Positions 1 through 39,222 of a stretch of 64,000 bases of DNA are shown piece after piece. A model generated the notes under the pieces. That model was not told the DNA's origin and ran no database searches. It worked only from the letters and a program-made list of their open reading frames with translations. Source of the DNA: Nemertoderma westbladi (lineage: Eukaryota > Animalia > Xenacoelomorpha); contig JAUCBJ010006822.1 in assembly GCA_032718475.1 (NCBI GenBank), forward strand, positions 1 to 64,000, written 5' to 3'. Numbering within the stretch: position 1 is the stretch's first letter; each line of letters starts with the position of its first letter. The position numbers were made by a program, and so were the translations under genes.

Positions 1-1031
1 TTTATTATATTCCTATAAACCACCTGGCTTTGCATATTTAACGTGCGATTGGAAATAAGTTCGTGCTACCCTTCCGTGGGTGGTAGATGTCGCGGTTATG
101 TATTGGTGGTTGGGAAGGGTGGGGGGGGGGGGGGGGGGGGGATTAAAAGGGGTGAACACGTACTGTCCACCTTTCTTTGATTGATTGGTGGTGTGGGTAA
201 ATTTCTCAAAACCTGATTTTGTGATACAGTCGCTGCATTTTAATTTGTATATAATAACTAGGCCTCGTGCTGCGCGAAGTCCCCACGAACGTGTAATCTC
301 TGCATGATTCAATGTCGACAAACTCGGCGCGTTCATATTTACCATACAGATACCGCTTGATTTGGTTTAATAGTGCCTTTTTTAAGACTTCCATTCGTTC
401 CACTTTCGTTTCTATTATAGCGTTTCTCATGAAGCTAAGGATACATAAGACGTTAGGACCACTTAGGGAGACCTCTAGTATTCACTCCATTGTTGGTGTT
501 TTATTCGGTGTTGTTGGTTAATTTCCAGGTGGATTTTGTGGCTTTAAAAGGCTTCATACGCCGCAGTGGCGAAGTTGGTAGAGCGTGGGACTTGGAATAT
601 CTAGGTACAGAGTTCAGTACCACTTTCCCGGTGAACCATAGTTTGGTTTTGGTTCAATGCGTTAGTTTATGTGGACCTTTGCGCGATTTCACCCTTTTTG
701 TTCTAATCTAAATGCAGTTGATAATGGTATTACATTTAGTTGATTTTAATATAGGCCTGCCTATATTACTATATTACAAATTGCGACATAGGCCTATTAC
801 TTATGTAAGTGTTTTCATTTTGGCACTGGTACATTATTTATTTGTTGAAAAAAATCATGGGTTCACAATCGGGAGAGACATTCCCAGAAAACTCGATAAA
901 AAAAATGGAAAAAAATGGAAGGTACTCACTTCGTAAACGGAATGACTTGAGAAATGCAAGCGTCTTCTGATTCGGCTTTGGTTGATACCTCATCTATCAC
1001 TGAGAGCAACTCAATAGTCTAAAATAATCAT

Positions 1032-1994
1032 GTACATATGCGTTAGTATGTAGTGTACAGTACATATGCGTTAGTATGTAGTGTACAGTACATATGCGTT
1101 AGTATGTAGTGTACAGTACATATGCGTTAGTATGTAGTGTACAGTACATATGCGTTAGTATGTAGTGTACAGTACATATGCGTTAGTATGTAGTGTACAG
1201 TACATATGCGTTAGTATGTAGTGTACAGTACATATGCGTTAGTATGTAGTGTACAGTACATATGCGTTAGTATGTAGTGTACAGTACATATGCGTTAGTA
1301 TGTAGTGTACAGTACAATATGCGTTAGTATGTAGTGTACAGTACATATGCGTTAGTATGTAGTGTACAGTACATATGCGTTAGTATGTAGTGTACAGTAC
1401 ATATGCGTTAGTATGTAGTGTACAGTACATATGCGTTAGTATGTAGTGTACAGTACATATGCGTTAGTATGTAGTGTACAGTACATATGCGTTAGTATGT
1501 AGTGTACAGTACATATGCGTTAGTATGTAGTGTACAGTACATATGCGTTAGTATGTAGTGTACAGTACATATGCGTTAGTATGTAGTGTACAGTACATAT
1601 GCGTTAGTATGTAGTGTACAGTACATATGCGTTAGTATGTAGTGTACAGTACATATGCGTTAGTATGTAGTGTACAGTACATATGCGTTAGTATGTAGTG
1701 TACAGTACATATGCGTTAGTATGTAGTGTACAGTACATATGCGTTAGTATGTAGTGTACAGTACATATGCGTTAGTATGTAGTGTACAGTACATATGCGT
1801 TAGTATGTAGTGTACAGTACATATGCGTTAGTATGTAGTGTACAGTACATATGCGTTAGTATGTAGTGTACAGTACATATGCGTTAGTATGTAGTGTACA
1901 GTACATATGCGTTAGTATGTAGTGTACAGTACATATGCGTTAGTATGTAGTGTACAGTACATATGCGTTAGTATGTAGTGTACAGTACAATATG
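1032..1994. repeat. 28-bp tandem minisatellite (TACATATGCGTTAGTATGTAGTGTACAG), about 34 near-identical copies
   Basis: Unit recurs every 28 nt (1061, 1089 ... 1201); the only variant seen is a 1-nt insertion near 1316 and in the last partial unit. Confidence 0.98.
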
Positions 1995-2338
1995 TACACA
2001 ATAGTTAATAAATACTAGACCTATTCTGATTCCGAAAGAAAAATTTAATATCGACATGCATGTCGTAATAAACCTCTTAAACAGATATTTGAAGAACAAT
2101 GGAACAATGGAACAATGGAACAATATTCAAAATGCAATACTAATTTTAATTAAACTGAAACTGATAAATATTTTAATTACACTTGTACATTATTAATTTG
2201 TAATGATTTGGAAATCAATGCTAAATTAAAAGAAAATATCTATGTAGTTCAAACATAGGAGAAACAGCACAAACATATTAACATATTTATTTGTCTGACT
2301 ACAGTAAATTTAATTAATTTAATATTTAGTAGGCCAAT

Positions 2339-3784
2339 TTAAATAAATAAACCAACCTCCACTATTCTATCCTTATTGGTTGAACTCATCCAGGTGGGGA
2401 TATCTTGGCCAACTGATACCAGTACGTGTTGAATGGCCTGCCATAGCTGGTTGACTCGATTTAGCATTAGGAAAACGCGGCTCCATCTTGTCTTGGATGG
2501 TAATGTTAACGTAAGTTGAGATTTGTCATGTGATTGAGCCTCCAGTAATAGGGAGTGGGCACGGCTTGATTTTTTGAAATAAAGCACCGTTTTCCTTACC
2601 TCCTCTATCAATGTTGTAAGGTTACAATCTGCTTCCAGTGCGGCTCCACTACTAGATTTAATAAATGGTTAAAACACCCTCTAGATTTAAAATTGGCATC
2701 TGTAAGTCCTTTGATGATATTTTTCGACCAGAAAATGGTTCACATTGAAGTATTACGGCGGTACGCTTCCACTCGTTGTCGACGTAATGGATGGTTAGAG
2801 AGATAAAACCCTCCATTTTCCTCGAAGTCCACATATCAGTGGATGGTGAACAATATTCGAATGAGTTTATTATTGCTTCTTTAATTGCACTCTTAGTTCT
2901 CCCGTATATATCGGGCATGAGGACTGTACGGACAATTTTTTCTGACGGAATGATGAATCTAGGATTAAGTTCTGCAATAAAATATTTAATTGTTCTGTTT
3001 CGACAGTAGTGTAGGGTTGTAAGTCACTTATATGCCAAGAAGTTAGTTTAGATTTTAGTATAACATCTTTATTGCTTCCCTACAGACAGAGCATAGCAGG
3101 CACATTATGTATTGCAATAAATTTATTGATAGCCAATATTTTGAAATATTTTAACATTTCTATCTCGACACAAAATTCTGATATGGTACTGAGCTTTATT
3201 TATTGAGTCATTTTTTTCGCTTGCGGTTAATTTGTTTTACTATCTGTCTTTATTATATGACTTTATTACATATACTGTACTTACATATATCACATTACAA
3301 AACAATTATAATTGTATAAATGTACTATCGTTTCATTTTTTTGTTAGTCTTTATAATACTTTGGCCATGCATACACCATGCCATCTGAATTTTACGTGTA
3401 GAAACGGTACAGGTGTCCGGTACCAGCTCTGGTTTATTACAATGAAATGTGCTGCGCTGCCCTACCTTTATATATGGCGGTTGCCTTACGAACTGGTCTA
3501 TCATGGACTGAATAGGTTTTTTTGATTCATTGGCTGGAGCTGTCAGTAGTAGTGGTAGTTGTAGGTCTATTAACTGAGTATATGGAGGAAGTTGAAGTTT
3601 TATCAGTGGGAGTGGATGTAGATGTTCGTTTCGGAAGTGTTCGATGGGCATTGGGGTGGTGTAATTTTATATGTTGAAACATTGACCCTGTCCCAAAAGT
3701 TCGTTTGTCAGAACTCTGTTTTCCGCGACTCACCTCTGCTCCACAGTTATCAATAATACCGTTATCGGGGGTGAAGTGAAACAT
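2339..3784 (-). pseudogene. Decayed hAT-family (ZBED-like) transposase
   Basis: Collinear fragments: BED-finger remnant (C..EVSRG..GTGSMFQHIKLHHP, 3527-3784), catalytic block STDMWTS..FISLTIHYVDNEW (2658-2918), and LPSKTRWSRVFLMLNRV (2339-2611). Broken by stops and frameshifts. Confidence 0.85.
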
Positions 3785-4123
3785 GCATGGTGGAGTAATA
3801 ATTATTAGTAATGGAGTAATAAGTTAGTGGAGTAATAAAATAATTTTTTGTTTTGGTAATTGATTATAAAAATACTCCCATCAGCATCCCTCATTAAATT
3901 GATTATTACCAATAATAAAGTAACTATCAACGTAATATTTAATCAGGAAAGGGGATTCACCTGCTAGAATTACATGGAAACAATATATAGTATGAAAACT
4001 ATATGCAAGTTAAAATTTTTAAAATTGTAGTTCTGAAAATTACATCTGGTATAACCAAATATGACAATGCTTTGTATTTTTACTTGATCATATGTTATAC
4101 TGCTTTGATTTTTACATAGCTGA

Positions 4124-4304
4124 AACTTGTTGCTGGACCCCCTCACACACAGAACTTGTTGCTGCAACTTGTTTCCGAAACTTGTTTCTGTGTGTGAGGA
4201 CTCCAGCAACAAGTTTCTGCAACTTGTTTCCGAAACTTATTCTGTGTGTGAGGGGGTCCAGCAACAAGTTGCAGAAACAAGTTGCTCCGTTTGAGGGGCG
4301 CCTA
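4124..4304. mobile_element. Palindromic MITE remnant, possibly the right end of a PIF/Harbinger-type element
   Basis: Perfect 31-bp inverted repeat 4124-4154 / 4240-4270, internal repeats of GCAACTTGTTTCCGAAACTT, ending GAGGGGCGCCTAA. Superfamily is inferred. Confidence 0.55.
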
Positions 4305-4769
4305 AGTGGGAACCTTTAATTACCAAATAAAATCTATTAAAACGTATGTTTTCTAAAATGAGTTCAAGTGAAACAGAAAAAGGGGTGAAGTGGAACATTA
4401 CATCATTGTCAATTATCCTTTGGTGTATTTACTGTATTTATTCTCATGTAACGGTAGCATGAATGAATGCCTTGGTTTGCCACACAGGTATGCTTTAGTT
4501 CAGGACTAGAATGGGCTTCTAATTTTGCTATATTTGATAATTTGGACCTTGTATAAACAACAAGACTCAAACTGCAGGTATCTGGTATATATCTTTGAAT
4601 TGTAGCCTATTCCATCCAAGCATGGTCAGATTTTACAAGCACATGCCTGGTGCTGGTACCAAGACTTTTCCTAATTACCATGATCAAGATGTTGAGAGGG
4701 CTGTACTCGAGCCAAGTTGGCTAGGAAGACATATCAGGAGATAGAGCAGGAGTTCTATATATTTATTAA

Positions 4770-5005
4770 AAAAGCAAAGGAAACAGTCGGCCGAAGCCGG
4801 AGGCGACCCGAAGGCTCCTCTTTCGATAGCTGCTACCCGAGGGTAGGGGTGGGCGCTACTCCTATCCCAAGATTTGCTCCCAGTTATTTAACTCGTACTC
4901 ATTTCATCGACCCCAGTGGATGAAAGGCTGAGTGGACCCTGGCGGGGCTGAACCTACAACCAATAGATTGCAGGCCCGGCGCTCAACCAACTGAGCTACC
5001 CCGCC
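4770..5005 (-). mobile_element. tRNA-derived SINE with Deu/Nin-type central domain
   Basis: Minus strand starts GGCGGGGTAGCTCAGTTGGTTGAGCG (A box), has a degenerate B box GGTTCAGCCC, then CACTCAGCCTTTCATCC..GGGGTCGATGAAATGAGTAC. Flanked by TSD (C)TATATATTTATTAA at 4755-4769 and 5005-5019. Confidence 0.88.
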
Positions 5006-5345
5006 TATATATTTATTAATGCTATTTATATGCTTTTACGTATGTTACCTTTACTTTTAGTAAATTTTGCAATGTCATTTACTCTATGCAATAATGTCCC
5101 ATATGCAATAAACATGTTTACAACCAGTTGGCCCGGTATGGTTATCATTTTAACAGTGTCAATAGTTAGTGTTTACTATAAACAGGGCCTGCTGGCCAGT
5201 AGTATGAAATATTGAAGTTAAATAGAGTAAACTCTATAGGTTTTGTTAATTTATAATAATAAATTAATTAATAATGTTAAATTAGTAAATGTTAAGTTTC
5301 AAAATAAAATTTTAACAATAAAACAACATATTATATTGTGTATAA

Positions 5346-7109
5346 GGAGCCTCTCTCCGACTTGAGCCTCTCTCCGACTCAGTTGTATTCGAAACAATAC
5401 AATCCTCAGCAAACAATAAAGCCTCTGGGCCCGACAACATCTACTACGAACATCTAAAACAAGCCTGTCCGTTCATTCTGGTAACTCTAACTTTGCTCTA
5501 CAACGTATGTCTCAATGTTGGCAAGCTTCCTTTCATCTGGAAGAACAGCATTATAAACATCCTGTATAAAGGTAAAGGTGCAATATCGAACCCGGACAAC
5601 TACCGTGGCATCGCCCTTCTCTGCGTTACCCTTAAAATACTAACATCGACTTTAAACAAACGTATTCGTCAACATGTTGGCCAACTGATCCCACCCGAAC
5701 AATACGGATTCCTCCCCGGTCGCTCTACGAATCAAGCTATATCAAAACTCCTCTGCGATATAGCATCAGCGTTCCGCTCGAGTCGCCGCAAAGAACGGAT
5801 CGTCTACGCGGCATTCGTCGACTTCCGAAAGGCATTCGACTTTGTAAGCCGTGCCAAGCTACTCCATAAAATATATGCCCTCGGTATCAAAGGAAAGACA
5901 TACGATCTCGTAAAGGAACTACTAGATAATTACATCCGGGTTTATGATGGCCTACGTTTCTCGAATATAATCCACCAACTCCGCGGTGTCCTTCAAGGGG
6001 ACTGCCTCTCTCCGACTCTTTTCATCATCTTCATTGCGGATCTGGCGTCAGCCCTCCGTAACTCTGTGGCTCTCCTTAAATTTATATTCTACGCAGACGA
6101 CCTAGTGTTCTACTCCTGCAACAAACGCGAAATCCAATCTGCGCTTGACGTCCTCCAAACCTGGTGTGTCGCTAATGGGATGGAGGTGAACCTCACCAAA
6201 ACAAAAATTGTAAAATTCCGCAAAGGCGGCCGCATTGCACGCAGCGACCACTTCACTTACAACAACCGCGAAGTTCAACTCGCCAGCCATTACGAATATC
6301 TCGGAGTCACCTTCCAGTCCTCACTATCCTTCTCTCTCCACCTCAAACAGAAAAAAGAAAAAGCTTATTGCATCATCGGTTCCCTTAAACACATCCACCT
6401 CTTGTCTGTAGAAACTGGAATTAAAATTTTCAACTCAAAAATATCTCCAATGATGACATACGCACTACAAATAATCTCACCACATCTCTCCCTGCAAAAT
6501 GTGAAAGATATCGACAAAGTAAAAACAACCCACGTAAAACGAATGCTTCGACTACACAGCTCTGCTTCCTCGACTCTTGTATTAAAATTGGCAGGGGAAA
6601 AATCATTCATCGAAGCCCTCCTAGAGACCTCCCTGTATGCGTTTAACCCAGAAGTTATCCGAAACTACCGGTCGTACCGCTCCGAACGCGAGGAGAATTT
6701 TGTTAACGAGGGATACTCCCGCGGTCCAGCATTCCAAACCTCGGTTTGGAAGACTCATGGCCAGACTAACAGGCATGTTGTCTCCCGGACGACAGCCCAC
6801 GGATTCCACTTTAAAGTCTGCAACAACTCCGTTCCCTTCCATGCCTTAACCCCGGAATGCCATTGCAAGTTCTGCAAACTCTCCTGCAGTGACCGCTACC
6901 ACATACTTTCCTGCAACCTCTGCCCGCCGCTGTCGGTACTCGCCGCAAACTAACCACAACGCCCGACCCCCCCCCCCCCCCCCCCCCCACTCCCCTCGCA
7001 TATTACTGTACTTTTATATACTGTACTGTATTGGTATATGTTTTTCTCCTATTGGCTGATTGGTATACTGTATCTCATATTTACCCCGCCCGGGGTGTAT
7101 ATATTAATA
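5346..7109 (+). mobile_element. 5'-truncated non-LTR retrotransposon (LINE) with 14-bp TSD
   Basis: TSD TATATTGTGTATAA at 5332-5345 and 7110-7123; contains an RT frame and a short 3' UTR with poly-C and a CCCCG..CGGGG hairpin. Confidence 0.92.
5493..6953 (+). CDS. LINE ORF2 reverse transcriptase, N-terminally truncated, with Cys/His-rich C-terminus
   Basis: Motifs NYRGIALL, FVDFRKAFD, GVLQGDCLSPTLF, FYADD, YEYLG. The frame stays open upstream (NNKASGPDNI) to about 5380, so the start and endonuclease domain are missing. Confidence 0.93.
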   Translation: MLYNVCLNVGKLPFIWKNSIINILYKGKGAISNPDNYRGIALLCVTLKILTSTLNKRIRQHVGQLIPPEQYGFLPGRSTNQAISKLLCDIASAFRSSRRKERIVYAAFVDFRKAFDFVSRAKLLHKIYALGIKGKTYDLVKELLDNYIRVYDGLRFSNIIHQLRGVLQGDCLSPTLFIIFIADLASALRNSVALLKFIFYADDLVFYSCNKREIQSALDVLQTWCVANGMEVNLTKTKIVKFRKGGRIARSDHFTYNNREVQLASHYEYLGVTFQSSLSFSLHLKQKKEKAYCIIGSLKHIHLLSVETGIKIFNSKISPMMTYALQIISPHLSLQNVKDIDKVKTTHVKRMLRLHSSASSTLVLKLAGEKSFIEALLETSLYAFNPEVIRNYRSYRSEREENFVNEGYSRGPAFQTSVWKTHGQTNRHVVSRTTAHGFHFKVCNNSVPFHALTPECHCKFCKLSCSDRYHILSCNLCPPLSVLAAN

Positions 7110-7255
7110 TATATTGTGTATAAAGTAAAGTTCCTTTATCTGACTTCGGGTCCTAATTTCAATATTTCACTAACTCGCTTCGCTCGTTCGTTTAAATATT
7201 CACACTCTGGACTGATGTGAGATAAAGTCCTACTTTTACACAATACAATAAATAG
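7110..7255. mobile_element. Short MITE-like element whose left TIR was the LINE target
   Basis: TATTGTGTATAAAGTAAAGTTCCTTTATCTGAC is an imperfect inverted repeat of GTGAGATAAAGTCCTACTTTTACACAATA (about 7217-7245); central CTCGCTTCGCTCG motif. Confidence 0.5.
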
Positions 7256-7503
7256 TTAAAACTATAGATATAGACTATGCAATGTACTAAACATGGTCAT
7301 TTATTTGTAGTTAGAACTCATCTCATATCCGTATCGTTGCACTCAGCCTGCACACCACACCTGTTCACCAAAATATATAACTTACAACCTTCCTTAGCTG
7401 GTACCGATCAAAATGTGGTATTGTTCAATGCGCTAAAGTTCTCCGTTAAAACTGTCCTGGTAGTTTAAAAACCGGTCTTTGCAAGCTGAGTCCGAATTTC
7501 TAG

Positions 7504-8970
7504 TTAGGAACCGAGAGGTTCATTACTGTAAGAATTGTTAGCTGACTGGCTGACTGGCTGGCTGACTGGCTGGCTGATCTACAGCCAAAACTACTCTAAC
7601 GATTTTGATGAAATTTTCACAGCATCTAGATACCGCGATTCTAAGGTCCCTGGTATGTTCCGCTATTTCGTCCATGAGCCGTGGGCTCGAAAAATGGACA
7701 TAAACGAAAAAACGCCATATGCGCAATGGTAAAATAACACCAATAACAGCTGGTGTCGTGATGAAAAATGGCTTATGTAATGGATTTCTACACAAGGCTT
7801 AGTATAAATCGATGAGGTTGCCAAGATTATTGTACTTAGTACACCCATACTGTTTGTTTAGGCCCTGCACTCTCTGTCAAAGCAAATATTAACTGGTTGA
7901 TTTAGTTTGTGGTTCTACACAAGCTTAGTATAAATCGATGAGGCTGCCAACTGGTTGGTTTAGTTTGCAATCTATTACCGCCTCAGCTGAATAACTCTTC
8001 CCCCTGCTGAATGACTATTAGGTATACCGTGTATCGGCTTCTCCCCTTCAGAACATTGTAAAGGGAATTTACTTTAGTTTACTCTACTGTGCCATTCAGC
8101 TGAATGGATTTGAGCGATTGCCAAGTACAGAGTTGGATCATTCTCTGACCATAGGCAAAGACATCAAATCTTTTTAAAAATATACTTTTTCCATGTTTTT
8201 TTTTCTGAACAAAAATTTCAAAAAAAATTTTTCGTAGCCAGTACTGCCAATCGATTCGCCATCAAAAATAACGCAAAAAATTTTTTTTGCAAAATTTTAA
8301 ATTACTGTAAATTTTTGGCGACTGGGGGGGGGGTCAATTTTTTTCGATCCGCTATAACTCCGGAACGCTTTGTCCAAATTCGATGGGGTTTTCATTTTTC
8401 AACTTAATTCGATGTCCTCTTTCAGCCTATCCATGTTTCGAAACCCCCAAACAGCGCCGTTCAAAAATTATTTTTTTCTAGTTCTAGAATTTTACAAATT
8501 TCAAAAAAGTTGCAGTATTTTATTAACGCCTTTACGGAATTCGATAGCGTTTTCGATTTTTATATTAAACGCAATATCCTGAATCTCACTAGCCTAGTTT
8601 CGCGTCACCAATGCCAAGATTTCATACTTTTGAAGAAAATTTTTCTAGAATAATTTTTATTTAATTACATTTATCGCGATTTCTTATTACTGATTGCACA
8701 TGAATTGATGGAGTTTTCAATTAATTAACTAAACACGATATCGCGCATCGCACCAGCGTGGTTTCGAAATTCCAAAACGAGGTCTTCACTAGTTGCAGGT
8801 CGATTTTGTTCTTGAATTGAGCATCTAATAATAGATCGAATTTATTAATAATTATTGTATGAAATATGATTGTATTTTTAGATAATTATTAGTTCTATAC
8901 TAATTCTCGTTGTCTCTTTTATTTAAAATAAAAAGTCGGTTCCTTATCGGGCCGCTAGGCCCGTCACTAG
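7504..8970 (+). mobile_element. Unit 1, type A (A key, A/T-tract body)
   Basis: 5' TTAGGAACCGAGAGGTTC ... 3' TCGGTTCCTTATCGGGCCGCTAGGCCCGTCACTAG. Confidence 0.9.
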
Positions 8971-10466
8971 TTAGCAAGTCGTTAGACTTGATTACTGTAA
9001 GAATTGTTGACTGACTGACTGGCTGGCTGGCTGGCTGACTGGCTGGCTGATCTACAGCCAAAACTACTCTAACGATTTTGATGAAATTTTCACAGCATCT
9101 AGATACCGCGATTCTAAGGTCCCTGGCATGATCGGCTACTCCGTCCATAGCCTCTGGGCTCGAAAAATAGAGATAAACGAAAAAACGCCATAGGCGCAAT
9201 GGTAAAATAACACCAATGACAGCTGGTGTCCTGATGAAAAATGGCTTATGTAATGCATTTCTACACAAGGCTTAGTAATAAATCGATGAGGTTGCCAAGA
9301 TTATTATACTTAGTACACCCATACTGTTTGTTTAGGCCCTAGGACACTCTGTCAAAGCAAATATTAACTGGTTGATTTAGTTTGTGGTTCTACACAGGCT
9401 TAGTATAAATCGGTGAGGCTGCCAACTGGTTGGTTTAGTTTGCAATCTATTACCGCCTCAGCTGAATAACTCTTCCCCCTGCTGAATGACTGTTAGGTAC
9501 AGGTTATTGGCTACATTAATGCCAACATTAATACAGTGGAAGCTGTATGCTTATAAGGTGGAATGTTTACTCAGCCTTATACTGATACTCTGTAAGGTTA
9601 AGACTAACATTATAGTTTGAAATATAAAAATCACTTATTATTATCTGTATTGGGTTAATAATCACTGTGGCATTCAAAATGTTTTATAGGTGATTGACAT
9701 TTAGTGCAAGCTGAATGACTGTTAGTTACAGAGTACTACAGTACTGCACTCTTATTTTATTTTTAAATCTTTCGTCCAACATTAATACTTTGGAGGTTGT
9801 ATGCTTATAAGGCGAATGTTTACTCAGCTTCATACTGATACACTGTAAGGCTAACACTAACGTTATAGTTTAACACATAAAAATCACTGCTTATTATCTG
9901 TATCAGGTTACATACTGTGGCATTCAAAATGTTTAAATGTTTTATAGGTGATTGATATTTAGTGCAAGCTGAATGACTGTAGGTTACAGAGTACTATTGC
10001 ACTGTATTTTATTTTTAAATCTTTTGGCCAACATTAATACTGTGGAGGCTGTATGCTTATAAGGCGGAATGTTTACTCAGCCTCATACTGATACTCTGTA
10101 AGGCTTACACTAACATTATTGTTTGAAATATAAAAATAACTGCTTATTATCTGTATTGGGTTAATCACTGTGGCATTCAAAATGTTTTGTTAGGTGAATG
10201 ACATTTAGTGGCTAAGATTATTCTCTGTCAGATTCCCTTCACACCATAGGCAAACATTGTTGAGGCTGAGGGAATTTACTTTAGTTTACTCTACTGAGTC
10301 ATTCAGCTGAATGGATTTGAGCAATTGCCAAATTACAGAGTGGGATCTCTCTCTGACCATAGATAAATAACACTTCCCTTCTGAACAAAGGTAAACATTG
10401 TTGAGGGAACTTACCTTTGATTGACGACTTCCGACTTGCTTAACGGCGTCTTGACGCCGTCTCTAG
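8971..10466 (+). mobile_element. Unit 2, type B-long (1496 bp, three internal repeats of about 250 bp)
   Basis: 5' TTAGCAAGTCGTTAGACTTG ... 3' CGACTTGCTTAACGGCGTCTTGACGCCGTCTCTAG; internal repeats start near 9523, 9776 and 10028. Confidence 0.9.
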
Positions 10467-10800
10467 TTAGCAAGTCGTAGGACTTGATTACTGTAAGAAT
10501 TGTTGGCTGATTGACTGGCTGGCTGGCTGGCTGACTGGCTGGCTGGCTGGCTGGCTGATCTACAGCCAAAACTACTCTAACGATTTTGATGAAATTTTCA
10601 CAGCGGCTAGATACCGCGATTCTAAGGTCCCTGGTATGTTCCGCTATTTCGTCCATGAGCCGTGGGCTCGAAAAATAGACATAAACGAAAAAACGCCATA
10701 GGCGCAATGGTAAAATAACACCAATGACAGCTTGTTGATGGAATTTACATTTGATTGATGACTTCCGACTTTCTTAACGGCGTCTTGACGCCGTCTCTAG
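10467..10800 (+). mobile_element. Unit 3, type B-short (334 bp)
   Basis: B ends joined to the core only. Confidence 0.9.
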
Positions 10801-12288
10801 TTAGGAACCGAGAGGTTCATTACTGTAAGAATTGTTGGCTGATTGACTGGCTGGCTGGCTGATCTACAGCCAAAACTACTCTAACGATTTTGATGAAATT
10901 TTCACAGCATCTAGATACCGCGATTCTAAGGTCCCTGGTATGATCGGCTACTCCGTCCATAGCCTCTGGGCTCGAAAAATAGAGATAAACGAAAAAACGC
11001 CATAGACGCAATGGTAAAATAACACCCATGACAGCTGGTGTCCTGATGAAAAATGGCTTATGTAATGCATTTCTACACAAGGCTTAGTATAAATCGATGA
11101 GGTTGCCAAGATTATTGTACTTAGTACACCCATACTGTTTGTATAGGCCACCACTCTCTGTCAAAGCAAACATTAACGAGTTGGTTTAGTTTGAAATCTA
11201 ATATCGCCTCAGCTGAATTACTCTTCCCAATGCATTCTATGCGAATATCTCACTCTGCAAAATGTAAGCTGAATGACTCTTACGTACACAGTGAGTTGGC
11301 TACATTAATGCCAACATTATTGCAAAATGTTTTATTGTTGGATTACTCTCTGTCAGTCTCCCCTTCAGAACATTGTATAGGGAATTTACTTTAGTTTACT
11401 CTACTGTGCCATTCAGCTGAATGGATTTGAGCGATTGCCAAGTTACAGAGTTGGATCATTCTCTGACCATAGGCAAAGACATCAAATCTTTTTAAAAATA
11501 TACTTTTTCCATGTTTTTTTTTCTGATCAAAAATTTCAAAAAAAAATTTTTCTTAGCCAGTACTGCCAATCGATTCGCCATCAAAAATAACGCAAAAAAA
11601 TTTTTTTGCAAAATTTTAAATTACTGTAATTTTTGGCGACTGGGGGGGGGTCAATTTTTTTTGATCCGCTATAACTCCGGAACGCTTTGTCCAAATTCGA
11701 TGGGGTTTTCATTTTTCAACTTAATTCGATGTCCTCTTTCAGCCTATCCATGTTTCGAAACCCCAAACAGCGCCGTTCAAAAATAAATTTTTTCTAGTTC
11801 TAGAATTTTACAAATTTCAAAAAAGTTGCAGTATTTTATTAACGCCTTTACGGAATTCGATAGCGTTTTCGATTTTTATATTAAACGCAATATCCTGAAT
11901 CTCACTAGCCTAGTTTCGCGTCACCAATGCCAAGACTTCATACTTTTTGAGGAAAATTTTTCTAGAATAATTTTTATTCAAATTACATTTATCGCGATTT
12001 CTTATTACTGGTTGCACATGAATTGATGGAGTTTTCACTTTATTAACTAAACACGATATCGCGCATCGCACCAGCGTGGTTTCGAAATTCCAAAACGAGG
12101 TCTTCACTAGTTGCAGGTCGAATTTGTTCTAGAATTGAGCATCTAATAATAGATCGAATTTATTAATAATTATTGTATGAAATATGATTGTATTTTTACA
12201 TAATTATTAGTTCTATACTAATTCTCGTTGTTTCTTTTATTTAAAATAAAAAGTCGGTTCCTTATCGGGCCGCTAGGCCCGTCACTAG
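10801..12288 (+). mobile_element. Unit 4, type A
   Basis: A ends; followed by a 12-bp A stub at 12289-12300. Confidence 0.9.
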
Positions 12289-12300
12289 TTAGGAACCGAG

Positions 12301-13796
12301 TTAGCAAGTCGTTAGACTTGATTACTGTAAGAATTGTTGACTGACTGACTGGCTGGCTGGCTGGCTGACTGGCTGGCTGATCTACAGCCAAAACTACTCT
12401 AACGATTTTGATGAAATTTTCACAGCATCTAGATACCGCGATTCTAAGGTCCCTGGCATGATCGGCTACTCCGTCCATAGCCTCTGGGCTCGAAAAATAG
12501 AGATAAACGAAAAAACGCCATAGGCGCAATGGTAAAATAACACCAATGACAGCTGGTGTCCTGATGAAAAATGGCTTATGTAATGCATTTCTACACAAGG
12601 CTTAGTAATAAATCGATGAGGTTGCCAAGATTATTATACTTAGTACACCCATACTGTTTGTTTAGGCCCTAGGACACTCTGTCAAAGCAAATATTAACTG
12701 GTTGATTTAGTTTGTGGTTCTACACAGGCTTAGTATAAATCGGTGAGGCTGCCAACTGGTTGGTTTAGTTTGCAATCTATTACCGCCTCAGCTGAATAAC
12801 TCTTCCCCCTGCTGAATGACTGTTAGGTACAGGTTATTGGCTACATTAATGCCAACATTAATACAGTGGAAGCTGTATGCTTATAAGGTGGAATGTTTAC
12901 TCAGCCTTATACTGATACTCTGTAAGGTTAAGACTAACATTATAGTTTGAAATATAAAAATCACTTATTATTATCTGTATTGGGTTAATAATCACTGTGG
13001 CATTCAAAATGTTTTATAGGTGATTGACATTTAGTGCAAGCTGAATGACTGTTAGTTACAGAGTACTACAGTACTGCACTCTTATTTTATTTTTAAATCT
13101 TTCGTCCAACATTAATACTTTGGAGGTTGTATGCTTATAAGGCGAATGTTTACTCAGCTTCATACTGATACACTGTAAGGCTAACACTAACGTTATAGTT
13201 TAACACATAAAAATCACTGCTTATTATCTGTATCAGGTTACATACTGTGGCATTCAAAATGTTTAAATGTTTTATAGGTGATTGATATTTAGTGCAAGCT
13301 GAATGACTGTAGGTTACAGAGTACTATTGCACTGTATTTTATTTTTAAATCTTTTGGCCAACATTAATACTGTGGAGGCTGTATGCTTATAAGGCGGAAT
13401 GTTTACTCAGCCTCATACTGATACTCTGTAAGGCTTACACTAACATTATTGTTTGAAATATAAAAATAACTGCTTATTATCTGTATTGGGTTAATCACTG
13501 TGGCATTCAAAATGTTTTGTTAGGTGAATGACATTTAGTGGCTAAGATTATTCTCTGTCAGATTCCCTTCACACCATAGGCAAACATTGTTGAGGCTGAG
13601 GGAATTTACTTTAGTTTACTCTACTGAGTCATTCAGCTGAATGGATTTGAGCAATTGCCAAATTACAGAGTGGGATCTCTCTCTGACCATAGATAAATAA
13701 CACTTCCCTTCTGAACAAAGGTAAACATTGTTGAGGGAACTTACCTTTGATTGACGACTTCCGACTTGCTTAACGGCGTCTTGACGCCGTCTCTAG
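12301..13796 (+). mobile_element. Unit 5, type B-long (1496 bp)
   Basis: B ends; appears identical to unit 2. Confidence 0.9.
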
Positions 13797-15406
13797 TTAG
13801 GAACCGAGAGGTTCATTACTGTAAGAATTGCTCGTGGCTGGCTGGCTGGCTGACTGACTGGCTGATCTACAGCCAAAACTACTCTAACGATTTTGATGAA
13901 ATTTTCACAGCGGCTAGATACCGCGATTCTAAGGTCCCTGGAATGTTCCGCTATTTTGTCCATGAGCCGTGGGCTCGAAAAATAGACATAAACGAAAAAA
14001 CGCCATAGGCGCAATGATAAAAACACCAGCTGGCACTCATGAAAAATGCATAGAGATGGCCTAGTAATGCTATTCTATAGGAATGGCCACCTAACAAGGA
14101 AATGCTTTCTCTGCCAAGTATTATCCTCACTCTACAACTCAGACAGTAAGCAAACAAAAGCTGTGGGATTCTAATGTATTACATCATAAGCTGATTGCTC
14201 TCCCAATAGCCCTCACACACTCACTGAATCCAATGAAATCGAATATCTATTAGCTTAATGCGAATAGCTGGTAAGCTGAATGCCATTTTAGTTATTGTGT
14301 ACTGTTGATAGCAGAGTTGACTGCTATGTTGTATGTATTTAATTAAAATAATTTTCGTAGAGGGAAGTTAATTTGGGATTACTTTCTATCAGATGTAAGC
14401 AAAGCTGTTCAATGGGGTGGGTCATGGGACCCAAATATAGTACATTATGCATGGCAAACATTAATAAAATCATTCAGTCAACATGGAGGGTATTTGCTTA
14501 GTTAACTCTACTGTGCGAAAAACGAATTTATAATGTTACCCATACTTCAGGTGAATGAATTTTTAGATATTTGTACTGGAGGCAAGGATTTCTGATATAA
14601 TTAAATATATATTTCGATATTATGTAGTTGCGCCCTTCTAGCAGCACGTGAGATAATCAAGTAATAGACACAATGTTTGACTTTGTCCCTTCAAGCAGCA
14701 CGTGAGTTTTGCTTTGACCCTTCGATATATGTATTTGCGCCCTTCGAGCAGCACGTGAATTACATCAAATAATAGACACATTGTTTAACTTTGTCCCTTC
14801 GAGCAGCACGTGAGTTTTGCTTTGACCCTTCGATATATGTATTTGCGCCCTTCGAGCAGCACGGGGAGTTGACTCAGACCGAGCCGAGCCGAGCCGAGCC
14901 GAGCCGAGCCGAGCCGAGCCGAGCCGAGCCGAGCCGAGCCGAGCCGAGCCGAGCCGAGCCGAGCCGAGCCGAGGCGAGCAAAGCCGAGCCGAGTTGAGCC
15001 GAGCCGAGCCGAGCGGAGCCGAGCCGAGCCGAGCCGAGCCGAGCCGAGCCGAGCCGTGCCGAGCCGAGCCGAGCCGAGCCGAGCCGAGCCGAGCCGAGCC
15101 GAGCCGAGCCGAGCCGAGCCGAGCCGAGCCGAGCCGAGCCGAGCCGAGCCGAGCCGAACCGAGCCGAGCCGAACCGAGCCGAGCCGAGCCGAGCCGAGAC
15201 AAGCCAAGCCAAGCCGAGCCGAGCCGAGCCGAGCCGAGCCGAGCCGAGCCGAGCCGAGCCGAGCCGAGCCGAGCCGAGCCGAACCGAACCAAACCAAACC
15301 GAACCGAGCCGAGCCGAGCCAAATCGTGCAAGACCGAGCCGAGCTCGTTGTCTCTTTTATTTGAAAAAAAATCGGTTCCTTATCGGGCCGCTAGGCCCGT
15401 CACTAG
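13797..15406 (+). mobile_element. Unit 6, type C (A key, CACGTG repeats and (GAGCC)n)
   Basis: A ends with a different body. Confidence 0.9.
14876..15345 (+). repeat. (GAGCC)n pentamer microsatellite inside unit 6
   Basis: Read directly; source of the AEPSR/SARLG ORFs. Confidence 0.98.
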
Positions 15407-16900
15407 TTAGGAACCGAGAGGTTCATTACTGTAAGAATTGTTGGCTGATTGACTGGCTGGCTGACTGGCTGGCTGGCTGGCTGGCTGATCTACAGCCAAA
15501 ACTACTCTAACAATTTTGATGAAATTTTCACAGTGGCTTGATACCGCGATTCGAAGGTCCCTGGTATGTTCCGCTATTTCGTCCATGAGCCGTGGGCTCG
15601 AAAAATAGACATAAACGAAAAAACGCCATTGGTGCAATGGTAAAATATCACCAATAACAGCTGGTGTCGTGATGAAAAATGGCTTATGTAATGGATTTCT
15701 ACACAAGGCTTAGTATAAATCGATGAGGTTGCCAAGATTATTCACTTAGTACACCAATACTGTTTGTTTAGGCCCTATGACACTCTGTCAAAGCAAATAT
15801 TTACTGGTTGGTTTAGTTTGAAATCTATTATTGCCTCAGCTGAATTACTCTTCCCAATGCGCACTCTATGGGAATATCTCCCTCTGCTAATGTAAGCTGA
15901 ATGACTTAAGTACACAGTGTGTTGGCTACATTAATGCCGTTTTATTGTTGGATTACTCTCTGTCAGTCTCCCCTTCAGAACATTGTATAGGGAATTTAAT
16001 TTAGTTTACTCTACTGTGCCATTCAGCTGAATGGATTTGAGCGATTGCCAAGTTACAGAGTTGGATCATTCTCTGACCATAGGCAAAGACATGAAATCTT
16101 TTTAAAAATATACTTTTTCCATGTTTTTTTTTCTGACCAAAAATTTCAAAAAAAAATTTTTCGTAGCCAGTACTGCCAATCGATTCGCCATCAAAAATAA
16201 CGCAAAAATTTTTTTTTGCAAAATTTTAAATTGCTGTAAATTTTTGGCGACTGGGGGGGGGGGTCAATTTTTTTCGATCCGCTATAACTCCGGAACGCTT
16301 TGTCCAAATTCGATGGGGTTTTCATTTTTCAACTTAATTCGACGTCCTCTTTCAGCCTATCCATGTTTCGAAACCCCAAACAGCGCCGTTCAAAAATTGA
16401 TTTTTTCTAGTTCTAGAATTTTACAAATTTCAAAAAAGTTGCAGTATTTTATTAACGCCTTTACGGAATTCGATAGCGTTTTCGATTTTTATATTAAACG
16501 CAATATCCTGAATCTCACTAGCCTAGTTTCGCGTCACCAATGCCAAGACTTCATACTTTTTGAGGAAAATTTTTCTAGAATAATTTTTACTTAATTACAT
16601 TTATCGCGATTTCTTATTACTGCTTGCACATGAATTGATGGAGTTTTCAATTTATTAACTAAACACGATATCGCGCATCGCACCAGCGTGGTTTCGAAAT
16701 TCCAAAACGAGGTCTTCACTAGTTGCAGGTCGATTTTGTTCTAGAATTGAGCAACTAATAATAGATCGAATTTATTAATAATTATTGTATGAAATATGAT
16801 TGTATTTTTACATAATTATTAGTTCTATACTAATTCTCGTTGTCTCTTTTATTTAAAATAAAAAGTCGGTTCCTTATCGGGCCGCTAGGCCCGTCACTAG
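15407..16900 (+). mobile_element. Unit 7, type A
   Basis: A ends and A body. Confidence 0.9.
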
Positions 16901-17234
16901 TTAGCAAGTCGTAGGACTTGATTACTGTAAGAATTGTTGGCTGATTGACTGGCTGGCTGGCTGGCTGACTGGCTGGCTGGCTGGCTGGCTGATCTACAGC
17001 CAAAACTACTCTAACGATTTTGATGAAATTTTCACAGCGGCTAGATACCGCGATTCTAAGGTCCCTGGTATGTTCCGCTATTTCGTCCATGAGCCGTGGG
17101 CTCGAAAAATAGACATAAACGAAAAAACGCCATAGGCGCAATGGTAAAATAACACCAATGACAGCTTGTTGATGGAATTTACATTTGATTGATGACTTCC
17201 GACTTGCTTAACGGCGTCTTGACGCCGTCTCTAG
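16901..17234 (+). mobile_element. Unit 8, type B-short (334 bp)
   Basis: B ends. Confidence 0.9.
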
Positions 17235-18723
17235 TTAGGAACCGAGAGGTTCATTACTGTAAGAATTGCTCGTGACTGACTGACTGACTGGCTGGCTGAT
17301 CTACAGCCAAAACTACTCTAACGATTTTGATGAAATTTTCACAGCGGCTAGATACCGCGATTCTAAGGTCCCTGGTATGTTCCGCTATTTCGTCCATGAG
17401 CCGTGGGCTCGAAAAATAGACATAAACGAAAAAACGCCATAGGCGCAATGGTAAAATAACACCAATAACAGCTGGTGTCGTGATGAAAAATGGCTTATGT
17501 AATGCATTTCTACAGAAGGCTTAGTAATAAATCGATGAGGTTGCCAAGATTATTATACTCAGTACACCCATACTGTTTGTATAGGCCACCACTCTCTGTC
17601 AAAGCAAACATTAACTGGTTGGTTTAGTTTGAAATCTAATATCGCCTCAGCTGAATTACTCTTCCCAATGCAATCTATGGGAATATCTCACTCTGCTAAT
17701 GTAAGCTGAATGACTGTTACGTACACAGTGAGTTGGCTACATTAATGCCAACATTATTGCAAAATGTTTTATTGTTGGATTACTCTCTGTCAGTCTCCCC
17801 TTCAGAACATTGTATAGGGAATTTACTTTAGTTTACTCTACTGTGCCATTCAGCTGAATGGATTTGAGCGATTGCCAAGTTACAGAGTTGGATCATTCTC
17901 TGACCATAGGCAAAGACATCAAATCTTTTTAAAAATATACTTTTTCCATGTTTTTTTTTCTGACCAAAAATTTCAAAAAAAATTTTTCGTAGCCAGTACT
18001 GCCAATCGATTCGCCATCAAAAATAACGCAAAAAATTTTTTTTGCAAAATTTTAAATTACTGTAAATTTTTGGCGACTGGGGGGGGTCAATTTTTTTCGA
18101 TCCGCTATAACTCCGGAACGCTTTGTCCAAATTCGATGGGGTTTTCATTTTTCAACTTAATTCGATGTCCTCTTTCAGCCTATCCATGTTTCGAAACCCC
18201 AAACAGCGCCGTTCAAAAATTAATTTTTTCTAGTTCTAGAATTTTACAAATTTCAAAAAAGTTGCAGTATTTTATTAACGCCTTTACGGAATTCGATAGC
18301 GTTTTCGATTTTTATATTAAACGCAATATCCTGAATCTCACTAGCCTAGTTTCGCGTCACCAATGCCAAGACTTCATACTTTTTGAGGAAAATTTTTCTA
18401 GAATAATTTTTATTTAATTACATTTATCGCGATTTCTTATTACTGGTTGCACATGAATTGATGGAGTTTTCAATTTATTAACTAAACACGATATCGCGCA
18501 TCGCACCAGCGTGGTTTCGAAATTCCAAAACGAGGTCTTCACTAGTTGCAGGTCGATTTTGTTCTAGAATTGAGCAACTAATAATAGATCGAATTTATTA
18601 ATAATTATTGTATGAAATATGATTGTATTTTTACATAATTATTAGTTCTATACTAATTCTCGTTGTCTCTTTTATTTAAAATAAAAAGTCGGTTCCTTAT
18701 CGGGCCGCTAGGCCCGTCACTAG
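17235..18723 (+). mobile_element. Unit 9, type A
   Basis: A ends and A body. Confidence 0.9.
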
Positions 18724-20368: not shown

Positions 20369-20701
20369 TTAGCAAGTCGTAGACTTGATTACTGTAAGAA
20401 TTGTTGGCTGATTGACTGGCTGGCTGGCTGGCTGACTGGCTGGCTGGCTGGCTGGCTGATCTACAGCCAAAACTACTCTAACGATTTTGATGAAATTTTC
20501 ACAGCGGCTAGATACCGCGATTCTAAGGTCCCTGGTATGTTCCGCTATTTCGTCCATGAGCCGTGGGCTCGAAAAATAGACATAAACGAAAAAACGCCAT
20601 AGGCGCAATGGTAAAATAACACCAATGACAGCTTGTTGATGGAATTTACATTTGATTGATGACTTCCGACTTGCTTAACGGCGTCTTGACGCCGTCTCTA
20701 G
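20369..20701 (+). mobile_element. Unit 11, type B-short
   Basis: B ends. Confidence 0.9.
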
Positions 20702-20992
20702 TTAGGAACCGAGAGGTTCATTACTGTAAGAATTGTTTGCTGATTGACTGACTGGCTGACTGACTGGCTGGCTGATCTACAGCCAAAACTACTCTAACGA
20801 TTTTGATGAAATTTTCACAGCGGCTAGATACCGCGATTCTAAGGTCCCTGATATGTTCCGCTATTTCGTCCATGAGCCGTGGGCTCGAAAAATAGAGATA
20901 AACGAAAAAACGCCATAGGCGCAATGGTAAAATAACACACCCATGACAGCTGGTGTCCTGATGAAAAATGGCTTATGTAATGCATTTCTACA

Positions 20993-23313
20993 CTAGTGAC
21001 GGGCCTAGCGGCCCGATAAGGAACCGACTTTTTATTTCAAATAAAAGAGACAACGAGCTCGGCTCGGTCTTGCACGATTGGGCACGATTAAGTTCGACTT
21101 GGCTTGATCGGCTCGGCTTGGCTTGGTTCGGCTCGGCTCGGCTCGTTTCGGCTCGGCTCGGCTCGGCTCGGCTCGGCTCGGCTCGGTTCGGCTCGGCTCG
21201 GCTCGGCTCGGCTCGGCTCGGCTCGGCTCGGCACGGCTCGGCTCGGCTCGGCTCGGCTCGGCTCGGCTCGGCTCGGCTCGGCTCGGGTCGGCTCGGCTCG
21301 GCTCGGCTCGGCTCGGCTCGGCTCGGCTCTGCTCGGCTCGGCTTGGCTCGGCTCGGCTCGGCTCGGCTCGGCTCGGCTCGGCTTGGCTCGGCTCGGCTCG
21401 GCTCGGCTCGGCTTGGCTCGGCTCGGCTCGGCTCGGCTCGGCTCGGCTCGGCTCGGCTCGGCTCGGCTCGGCTCGGCTCGGCTCGGCTCGGCTCGGCTCG
21501 GCTCGGCTCGGTTCGGCTCGGCTCGGCTCGGCTCGGCTCGGCTCGGCTCGGCTCGGCTCGGCTCGGCTCGGCTCGGCTCGGCTCGGCTCGGCTCGGCTCG
21601 GCTCGGCTCGGCTCGGCTCGGCTCGGCTCGGCTCGGCTCGGCTCGGCTCGGCTCGGCTCGGCTCGGCTCGGCTCGGCTCGGCTCGGCTCGGCTCGGCTCG
21701 GCTCGGCTCGGCTCGGCTTGGCTCGGCTCGGCTCGGCTCGGCTCGGCTTGGCTCGGCTCGGCTCGGCTCGGCTCCGCTCGGCTCGGCTCGGCTCGGCTCG
21801 GCTCGGCTCGGCTCGGCTCGGCTCGGCTCGGCTCGGCTCGGCTCGGCTCGGTTCGGCTCGGCTCGGCACGGCACGGCTCGGCTCGGCTCGGTTCGGCTCG
21901 GCTCGGCTCGGCTCGGCTCGGCTCGGCTTGGCTCGGCTCGGCTCGGCTCGGCTCGGCTCGGCTCGGCTCGGCTCGGCTCGGCTCGGCTCGGCTCGGCTCG
22001 GCTCGGCTCGGCTCGGCTCGGCTCGGCTCGGCTCGGCTCGGCTCGGCTCGGCTCGGCTCGGCTCGGCTCGGCTTGGCTCGGCTTGGCTTGGCTCGGCTCG
22101 GCTCGGCTCGGCTCGGCTCGGCTCGGCTCCGCTCGGCTCCGCTCGGCTCGGCTCGACTCGGCTCGGCTCGGTCTGAGTCGACTCCCCGTGCTGCTCGAAG
22201 GGCGCAAATACATATATCGAAGGGTCAAAGCAAAACTCACGTGCTGCTCGAAGGGACAAAGTCAAATATCGAAGGGTCAAAGCAAAACTCACGTGCTGCT
22301 CGAAGGGACAAAGTCAAACAATGTGTCTATTATTTGATGTAATTCACGTGCTGCTCGAAGGGCGCAAATACATATATCGAAGGGTCAAAGCAAAACTCAC
22401 GTGCTGCTCGAAGGGACAAAGTCAAACATTGTGTCTATTATTTGATTATCTCACGTGCTGCTAGAAGGGCGCAACTACATATATCGAAACAAGCCCCTGT
22501 CTTGTATTTTAATTATATCAGAAATCCTTGCCTTCAGTACAAATATCTAAAAATTCATTCACCTGAAGTATGGGTAACATTATAAATTCGTTTTTCGCAC
22601 AGTAGAGTTAACTAAGCAAATACCCTCGGTCCAGGTTGACTGAATGATTTTATTAATGTTTGCCATGCATAATGTACTATATTTGGGTCCCATGACCCAC
22701 CCCATTGAACAGCTTTGCTTACATCTGATAGAAAGTAATCCCAAATTAACTTCCCTCTACGAAAATTATTTTAATTAAATACATACAACATAGCAGTCTA
22801 CTCTGCAATCAACAGTACACAATAACTAAAATGGCATTCAGCTTACCAGCTATTCGCATTAAGCTAATAGATATACGATTTCATTCGATTCAGTGAGTGT
22901 GTGAGGGCTATTGGGAGAGCAATCAGCTTATGATGTAATACATTAGAATCCCACGGCTTTTGTTTGCTTACTGTCTGAGTTGTAGAGTGAGGATAATACT
23001 TGGCAGAGAAAGCATTTCCTTGTTAGGTGGCCATTCCTATAGAATAGCATTACTAGGCTTTCTCTATCCATTTTTCATGAGTGCCAGCTGGTGTTTTTAT
23101 CATTGCGCCTATGGCGTTTTTTCGTTTATGTCTATTTTTCGAGCCCAAGGCTCATGGACGAAATAGCGGAACATACCAGGGACCTTAGAATCGCGGTATC
23201 CAGCCGCTGTGAAAATTTCATCAAAATCGTTAGAGTAGTTTTGGCTATAGATTAACCAGCCAGTCAATCAATCAGCCAACAATTCTTACAGTAATGAACC
23301 TCTCGGTTCCTAA
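20993..23313 (-). mobile_element. Inverted complete type C element nested in unit 12
   Basis: Begins CTAGTGACGGGCCTAGCGGCCCG and ends CTCTCGGTTCCTAA, the reverse complements of the A ends. Confidence 0.93.
21055..22175 (-). repeat. (GGCTC)n pentamer tract, about 1.1 kb
   Basis: Read directly. Confidence 0.98.
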
Positions 23314-24678
23314 CAAGGCTTAATATAAATCGATGAGGTTGCCAAGATTATTGTACTTAGTACACCCATACTGTTTGTTTAGGCCCTGCACTCTCTGTCA
23401 AAGCAAATATTAACTGGTTGATTTAGTTTGTGGTTCTACACAGGCTTAGTATAAATCGATGAGGCTGCCAACTGGTTGGTTTAGTTTGCAATCTATTACC
23501 GCCTCAGCTGAATAACTCTACCCCCTGCTGAATGACTATTAGGTATACAGTGTATCGGCTACATTAATGCCAACATTAATACTGTGGAGGCTGTATGCTT
23601 ATAAGGTGGAATGTTTACTCAGCCTTATACTGATACTCTGTAAGGCTAAGACTAACATTATAGTTTGAAATATAAAAATCACTTCTTGGCTACATTAATG
23701 CCAACATTATTGCAAAGTGTTTTATTGTTGGATTACTCTCTGTCAGTCTCCCCTTCAGAACATTGTATTGGGAATTTACTTTAGTTTACTCTACTGTGCC
23801 ATTCAGCTGAATGGATTTGAGCGATTGCCAAGTTACAGAGTTGGATCATTCTCTGACCATATGCAAAGACATGAAATCTTTTTAAAAATATACTTTTTCA
23901 ATGTTTTTTTTTCTGACCTAAAATTTCAAAAAAAAAATTTTCGTAGCCAGTACTGCCAATCGATTCGCCATCAAAAATAACGCAAAAAATTTTTTTTGCA
24001 AAATTTTAAATTACTGTAAATTTTTGGCGACTGGGGGGGGTCAATTTTTTTCGATCCGCTATAACTCCGGAACGCTTTGTCCAAATTCGATGGGGTTTTC
24101 ATTTTTCAACTTAATTCGATGTCCTCTTTCAGCCTATCCATGTTTCGAAACCCCAAACAGCGCCTTTTCAAAAATTAATTTTTTCTAGTTCTAGAATTTT
24201 ACAAATTTCAAAAAAGTTGCAGTATTTTATTAACGCCTTTACGGAATTCGATAACGTTTTCGATTTTTATATTAAACGCAATATCCTGAATCTCAATAGC
24301 CTAGTTTCGCGTCACCAATGCCAAGATTTCATACTTTTTGAGGAAAATTTTTCTAGATTAATATTTATTTAATTACATTTATCGCGATTTCTTATTACTG
24401 GTTGCACATGAACTGATGGAGTTTTCAATTTATTAACCAAACACGATATCGCGCATCGCACCAGCGTGGTTTCGAAATTCCAAAACGAGGTCTTCACTAG
24501 TTGCAGGTCGATTTTGTTCTAGAATTGAGCAACTAATAATAGATCAAATTTATTAATAATTATTGTATGAAATATGATTGTATTTTTACATAATTATTAG
24601 TTCTATACTAATTCTCGTTGTCTCTTTTATTTAAAATAAAAAGTCGGTTCCTTATCGGGCCGCTAGGCCCGTCACTAG

Positions 24679-35800: not shown

Positions 35801-35889
35801 ATAATTATTAGTTCTATACTAATTCTCGTTGTCTCTTTTATTTAAAATAAAAAGTCGGTTCCTTATCGGGCCGCTAGGCCCGTCACTAG
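32862..35889 (+). mobile_element. Unit 18, type A, interrupted by an inverted B-long copy
   Basis: Removing 33160-34655 restores GCTTAGTAA|TAAATCG. Confidence 0.9.
33160..34655 (-). mobile_element. Inverted complete B-long element (1496 bp) nested in unit 18
   Basis: Begins CTAGAGACGGCGTCAAGACGCCGT and ends CTAACGACTTGCTAA; no TSD. Confidence 0.93.
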
Positions 35890-38888: not shown

Positions 38889-39222
38889 TTAGCAAGTCGT
38901 AGGACTTGATTACTGTAAGAATTGTTGGCTGATTGACTGGCTGGCTGGCTGGCTGACTGGCTGGCTGGCTGGCTGGCTGATCTACAGCCAAAACTACTCT
39001 AACGATTTTGATGAAATTTTCACAGCGGCTAGATACCGCGATTCTAAGGTCCCTGGTATGTTCCGCTATTTCGTCCATGAGCCGTGGGCTCGAAAAATAG
39101 ACATAAACGAAAAAACGCCATAGGCGCAATGGTAAAATAACACCAATGACAGCTTGTTGATGGAATTTACATTTGATTGATGACTTCCGACTTGCTTAAC
39201 GGCGTCTTGACGCCGTCTCTAG
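38889..39222 (+). mobile_element. Unit 21, type B-short (334 bp)
   Basis: B ends. Confidence 0.9.

Follow-up and report, generated by a model that had tools for sequence, protein, structure and literature searches.

The window, a 64,000-nucleotide stretch of a Nemertoderma westbladi contig, is repeat-rich, with a G+C content of 40%. Motif search and dissection delimited a mixed, head-to-tail array of 37 kb (7504-44519, + strand), preceded by a left flank whose final bases are CTAG and followed by a right flank whose first base is T. The array comprises 25 complete non-coding tandem units, 17 carrying one terminal sequence (key A) and 8 carrying another (key B), together with a stub of 12 bp and two nested copies in inverted orientation. 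The complete elements thus total 27 (18 key A and 9 key B), a count from which the stub, the beginning of a key A unit (12289-12300), is left out. Long open reading frames (ORFs) within units are shadows of microsatellites or are broken between copies, and no element copies were found elsewhere in the window.

On both sides of the array lie ORFs of non-LTR retroelements (5346-6953, + strand; 53897-55165, - strand), with reverse transcriptase (PF00078) and endonuclease (PF14529/PF03372) domains. Two of the six window ORFs scanned had Pfam matches, and none of the six was a RepHel or an autonomous partner; a Helitron2 partner would be a RepHel of the HLE2 clade, and a DINE-1/HINE partner would carry an AP endonuclease domain. 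A stop-to-stop frame of 880 residues (57205-59847, + strand), which includes a charged repeat region, had no Pfam match and is probably, at a guess, derived from a retroelement. Two tandem repeats were also observed, a 28-bp satellite at 1032-1994 (34 copies, 99% identical) and a 162- to 164-bp repeat at 52890-53606 (~4 copies), which is unrelated to the array by BLAST. An Rfam search of window positions 1 to 16000 gave no matches.

Table 1. Coordinates of the principal features of the array (ATIR, asymmetric terminal inverted repeat)
Feature	Position	Strand	Basis or remark
Key A 5' end: 5' ATIR within a 5-bp hairpin	7504-7521	+	Motif search, folding
Unit 1, key A; 5' body common with B-long, 3' body of A type	7504-8970	+	Body comparison
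Key A 3' end: 3' ATIR (8936-8946), hairpin (8948-8963), CTAG	8936-8970	+	Motif search, folding
B-long element, 1496 bp	8971-10466	+	B start at 8971-8990
B-short element, 334 bp (unit 3), private G>T in 3' ATIR	10467-10800	+	
12-bp stub, identical to bases 1-12 of the A unit at 13797	12289-12300	+	
Key A element of another body class, with 108-bp repeats and a CCGAG microsatellite	13797-15406	+	
Inverted nested key A element (host unit 20702-24678)	20993-23313	-	Empty site CTTG^T on element strand, no duplication
Inverted nested key B element (host unit 32862-35889)	33160-34655	-	Empty site TTTA^T, no duplication
Last unit, both ends key B with a 10-bp perfect repeat, A-type 3' hairpin, divergent body	43199-44519	+	

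The B-long element contains a 5' ATIR with a 6-bp hairpin, a CTGG/CTGA microsatellite, a core, 253-bp internal repeats, and a 3' terminus made up of the 3' ATIR (10432-10442), a hairpin (10443-10460), and CTAG. It is present in three identical copies, at 8971-10466, 12301-13796, and, inverted, 33160-34655. The B-short element at 10467-10800 has near-identical copies at 16901-17234, 20369-20701, and 38889-39222, and two 334-bp copies are identical to each other. Among key A elements, the body class of 13797-15406 recurs at 29156-31366 and 20993-23313. A CCGAG-type microsatellite of 440 to 1060 bp adjoins the 3' end of one A class (14879-15320, 21108-22171, and 30323-31283); two of its copies are homogeneous, and the third is degenerate.

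The last unit has some body segments in common with A elements of the CCGAG class (~83%) and further segments in common with B-long, and a loose contig end in one public sequencing run (X4) is similar to its core. This unit may therefore be a representative of an older family. Both nested copies lie on the minus strand, and their insertion points are 13 bp apart at a homologous place in their host units (approximately base 291 to 298), which suggests a second, internal hot spot.

Terminal anatomy and classification of the elements

A sequence-only reading of the window had proposed that the 5' and 3' keys always match within a unit, over bodies that are shared or swapped between keys. Both points were borne out, including the placement of the ends: the 5' key of every complete element corresponds to its 3' key (27/27; 18 A and 9 B), and body comparison recovered the shared and swapped interiors. 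The two single mismatches it listed are real. One is a G>T change at 10772 in unit 3, private to that copy (G accounts for a depth of 23026 of 23053 in run X1), and the other is an A>C change in the last unit, which lies outside the 9-bp perfect core. Compensatory change between the keys was likewise upheld: read by eye with one gap allowed, two substitutions and one indel separate A from B, and these differences are mirrored in the second arm of the 5' hairpin and in the 3' repeat. The B loops take three forms while the stems hold. Counted from base 3, the perfect inverted repeat is 9 bp long, or 10 bp in the last unit, and carries one mismatch in unit 3; counted from base 1, it is 11 bp long with one mismatch. 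The 3' repeat ends 24 nucleotides before the end of CTAG in all 27 elements.

The further claim that the 3' hairpin follows the key is correct for 26 of 27 elements and fails for the last unit, which combines key B with an A-type hairpin; hairpin and key are therefore separable. The two hairpin types are equally long and have the same outer arms; three inner pairs distinguish them, and their predicted energies are equal. A naive probability of 2e-7 can be calculated for the matching of keys if related copies are treated as independent, but it carries no weight because the copies are related through one A/B split and approximately four distinct B lineages. The comparison of A with B is one evolutionary contrast, not 27.

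Judged from structure, the elements appear to be of Helitron2 type rather than strict HINEs. As described by Bao and Jurka in 2013 (PMC3627910), Helitron2 elements have short ATIRs of 8 to 15 bp, the 5' copy lying 0 to 2 bp from the end within a terminal hairpin and the 3' copy lying 20 to 30 bp from the end directly before a hairpin; the first base is T, and target-site duplication is as a rule absent. All of these features occur here, with a constant 3' spacing, a 3' hairpin of predicted energy -8.3 to -9.0 kcal/mol, and clean empty sites for both nested copies. The single 12-bp duplication in the array is of the rare kind known from CRe Helitron2 elements, in which target-site duplications of 7 to 19 bp are placed after the target motif (PMC3627910). 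Compensatory changes between two sister non-autonomous families are also described there. The elements in the window differ from these known Helitron2 elements in their CTAG ends, in the interleaving of two families with recombining interiors, and in a target that is not TTTT^T/C. They share the 3' hairpin and CTRR terminus of Helitron1 (CTAG in 27/27) but not its 5' TC without subterminal inverted repeats, since all 27 begin with TT and carry ATIRs.

The arrangement of core, microsatellite, and central tandem repeats between subterminal inverted repeats (subTIRs), with an inverted repeat at the 5' end and a 3' stem-loop, is that of DINE-1/HINE elements (Thomas et al. 2014, PMC4067079), a likeness in structure. 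Those elements, however, insert into TT, have variable T tails, and carry a 13-bp repeat, whereas the sites in the window are CTAG^T, CTTG^T, and TTTA^T, the terminus is a fixed CTAG, and the perfect repeat is 9 to 10 bp. Because the TT target is lacking, we keep the elements out of strict DINE-1/HINE. Solo 3' ends in public contigs mostly diverge after a single T (9, 7, 10, and 1 contigs among the matches listed). The proto-Helentron of Phytophthora (PMC4067079, PMC11417382) has the same 5' TT and 3' CTAG but differs in being autonomous, in inserting at A^T, and in having a stem-loop located 5' of the left repeat. Exact-pattern scans for element ends gave no matches in metagenome contigs (two scans) or viral contigs (one scan).

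Growth of the array and recombination of the interiors

The arrangement of units gives little sign of block duplication. The three identical 1496-bp copies and the two identical 334-bp copies each have different neighbors, and exact identity extends 2 to 48 bp past their ends, which is the background for any two ends (medians of 34 and 48.5). A test for block duplication by neighbor correlation was negative (r = -0.008, P = 0.42), and adjacent units were no more alike than shuffled ones (similarity of 0.21 versus 0.245). No adjacent units are identical, and at least six body classes are interleaved, so that the pattern of a satellite or concatemer, in which adjacent units are identical or fall in repeated blocks, is not seen. 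By overall similarity, the neighbor pairs 16901+17235 and 38889+39223 are alike as a dimer (1.0 and 0.88); duplication of a dimer (16901-18723 and 38889-40717) is not supported, however, as the second units are identical over their first 34 bp only. The array was therefore likely not built by block duplication.

The borders between units are precise. Twenty-four junctions are exactly CTAG|TT, and five B units are flanked by A-type ends with clean borders. Homologous exchange in the shared 5' body would have left chimeras in producing these five; the absence of chimeras among the 27 elements limits random crossovers to approximately five at most. CTAGT also occurs at 46 other plus-strand and 45 other minus-strand sites in the array, none of which carries an insertion. 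These ~90 unused internal sites rule out a short motif as the sole cause of stacking and indicate that the landing site is marked by an element end. The order of keys is random (AA 10, AB 7, BA 6, BB 1; 13 changes versus 10.9 expected), which indicates that landing is key-blind. Same-key neighbors can pair across the junction in folding predictions, and key-guided targeting was considered on that account, but it is ruled out by the random order.

The stub sits directly after CTAG and repeats the initial 12 bp of the A unit that follows the B copy at 12301-13796. Stub and A start likely represent a target-site duplication around this B copy, in which case the stub would be the footprint of a B insertion into a pre-existing A|A junction.

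Within the matched ends, the interiors have recombined. Core haplotypes X and Y occur with both keys (A-X 2, A-Y 16, B-X 4, B-Y 4), and the 5' bodies of three A units match B-long over several hundred bases. The swapped tracts are patches of approximately 100 to 400 bp, and linker, core, and mid markers are shuffled against one another over ~500 shared bases. Among 21 rows (five near-identical B copies and the divergent last unit being left out of the 27), all four gametes with the key occur at 13 of 18 informative core sites, which amount to ~3 linked blocks and have just three distinct B rows behind them. The 5' and 3' keys, in contrast, form only two gametes and never mismatch in the 27 elements. 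A four-gamete interior between matched ends fits a filter for matched ends; it also fits conversion without crossover, and it is the same under pairing and under protein binding. Crossovers between A units may be a partial source of the mosaicism.

Five public runs from three studies contain the stretch, all as short-read contigs in which the two ends of one element are unphased. Four of the five were compared; X1 and X3 are one sample, possibly the source of the window, and X2 comes from a different study. Run X2 contains the left flank of the array joined to the first unit, as well as an exact 47-bp contig over the A|A junction at a depth of 11088, compared with 6 to 46 in five flank contigs. 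With 21 and 26 letters on either side, this contig falls under our 31-letter bridging rule, and each of its 31-mers crosses the junction. A contig in X3 bridges the A|A junction with 36 and 34 letters, and B|A junction contigs are present in X1 and X3. Taken loosely, the X2 depth suggests a few hundred A|A junctions versus 11 in the window, depth being distinct from copy number and possibly including circles. At 92% likeness, no key variant over the A|A junction reached 2% of depth in any of the four runs, and the primary sequence of the key therefore appears to be tightly held.

In run X4, no junction contig occurred among the seven contigs compared. The A 3' end is much deeper there than the A start (~4200 versus 35). 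The deep contigs stop 2 bases before the terminus, and the difference was counted neither for nor against mismatched ends. In one X4 contig, an A-type 3' end without its last two bases runs into a constant 317-bp sequence at a depth of 2884, which fits one old end carried within another repeat. Given the few element starts and the lack of a junction in this run, the burst of amplification may have been confined to a single lineage of the organism.

Probable stacking by self-targeted insertion and its alternatives

We favor, with a probability of approximately 0.6, the interpretation that these are non-coding Helitron2-type elements of two terminal-repeat families, stacked at exact CTAG|TT junctions by one-at-a-time, key-blind insertion before resident 5' ends, and that matched ends were likely required for mobilization. 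A RepHel transposase encoded elsewhere would nick at the 5' end of a resident copy, and either the freed 3'-OH of the flank or the junction itself would accept an incoming circle, so that every insertion would restore the same CTAG|TT junction. In the array, the genomic junction is identical in sequence to the junction of a circle. In Helraiser circles, CTAG is joined precisely to the 5' end, and this junction has been proposed as the cleaved site (PMC5876387); the IS91 family, a bacterial system that serves as an analogy of mechanism only, uses HUH rolling-circle chemistry at a tetranucleotide target (CTTG/GTTC) that resembles and lies close to its cleavage site, without target-site duplication (PMC13181058). 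In the donor, the 5' repeat would leave its local hairpin and pair, or be co-bound, with the 3' repeat as the ends are joined, and recombinants with an A start and a B end would therefore not be amplified. As matching would act at this step and landing is key-blind, the key would work within a unit and not between units. Insertion at 5' ends would leave the founder last in the array, at its 3' end, which is also the place of the most divergent unit (one observation); under this presumed order of insertion, the last unit is a candidate founder.

Folding predictions are consistent with the donor step. Matched ends pair at -11.8/-12.1 kcal/mol, mismatched ends at -2.9 to -3.5 kcal/mol, and the local 5' hairpins fold at -4.0 to -4.9 kcal/mol. 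In the 334-nucleotide B element, both forms are predicted to be populated, at 0.42 for the local and 0.57 for the long-range one; the change in unit 3 is predicted to abolish the latter. The switch of the 5' subTIR between hairpin and long-range pairing that the sequence-only reading envisaged is therefore thermodynamically plausible, but it is not new: Bao and Jurka (PMC3627910) had already hypothesized that the 5' hairpin is lost when the two repeats pair with each other and that this pairing fixes the endpoint, so that the inference was in print. Matched ends alone are the known end rule of Helitron2. The suggestion that keys allow a single cassette to be copied from a mixed array is, by logic, dispensable: in a head-to-tail layout, each start is followed first by its own 3' end, so that copying one unit needs no key.

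The view that pairing rather than primary sequence defines the mobile unit meets two competitors that would predict the same picture of matched ends. In one, the keys are binding sites for two different transposases, each of which needs its own site, inverted, at both ends, with no DNA-DNA pairing. Helentron families are indeed defined by identical subTIRs common with an autonomous partner (PMC4067079), and the scarcity of key variants, all under 2% of depth over the A|A junction in the four runs, agrees with protein recognition. We nevertheless regard this as somewhat unlikely, as the change between keys is mirrored in three places, including the arm of the local hairpin, as loops vary while stems are kept, and as core, microsatellite, and junction type are common to A and B. 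In the other, matched ends reflect descent alone, with interior patches introduced by gene conversion without crossover and no filter on the ends. The patchy size of the swapped tracts and the single A/B split with its few B lineages accord with this, but the mutual shuffling of linker, core, and mid markers extends over ~500 bases in which a single crossover would mismatch the ends, and we consider descent alone unlikely.

Growth as a satellite, through rolling-circle concatemers, read-through multimers, or unequal crossover, would explain the mosaic A units and has a precedent, as known head-to-tail Helitron junctions and arrays have been ascribed to rolling-circle replication. It appears quite improbable here against the lack of identical neighbors and of a block signal, the absence of chimeras, and the interleaving of body classes. 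Assembly from collapsed repeats could in principle create a mixed order, since the data are short-read contigs and reads spanning a whole unit are absent. Yet most units have their own microsatellite pattern and SNPs, the nested copies have clean empty sites, and the A|A, B|A, and left-flank junctions recur in public contigs (X1 and X3 possibly being the source sample), and we therefore consider an artifact highly improbable.

Self-targeted insertion has partial parallels. In Drosophila, repeated insertion at a preserved target yields head-to-tail tandems of transposable elements (McGurk and Barbash 2018, PMC5932611), but there the preserved target is the target-site duplication and the tandems are mostly one-family dimers, in contrast to 25 units of several subfamilies without spacers; the word "Helitron" does not occur in the available text of that paper. 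The FoHeli elements of Fusarium (Chellapan et al. 2016, PMC5148889) are Helitron2 elements inserted at or near the 5' end of another copy, with short duplicated 5' termini and joined ends, but they are isolated cases and a three-copy tandem, whereas the array here is long and mixed and its units are intact. Helitron junctions of the head-to-tail kind are known (PMC5876387), and plant Helitron arrays have been described as truncated copies that arose through rolling-circle amplification (Xiong et al. 2016, as summarized in PMC12628747). No mixed array of intact units is described in the available text of PMC12001565, PMC13085455, or PMC11417382. We found no precedent for a mixed array of intact Helitron2 units in the literature searched, which lay outside most subscription papers, Repbase reports, supplements, and the review of Thomas and Pritham 2015, any of which may hold cases. 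The more unusual point is the likely growth of this mixed stack by single copies that landed exactly at the starts of resident ones; the matched ends over a recombining interior also go beyond the known end rule.

The array points to a third route to Helitron tandems, precise self-targeted insertion, beside concatemers and unequal crossover, and this route bears on Helitron target choice and on the origin of satellites. The locus also carries two natural keys over one shared body that recombines, and the 2013 pairing model thereby becomes testable. More tentatively, the 5' junction could be a regenerating landing pad at which key-blind addition of cassettes builds integron-like mixed arrays at many loci, while an end-pairing checkpoint purges recombinants. 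If so, the array would be a time-ordered record of insertions and would offer the first population-level evidence for that model.

The bases that precede element starts fit a pattern of T-W-R followed by T at all four single sites (CTAG, CTTG, TTTA, and ATTA), in a small post hoc sample taken from 7500-7503, 23314-23317, 34656-34659, and loose contig ends. Two consensus rows agree with this pattern, and the element's own CTAG end fits it as well.
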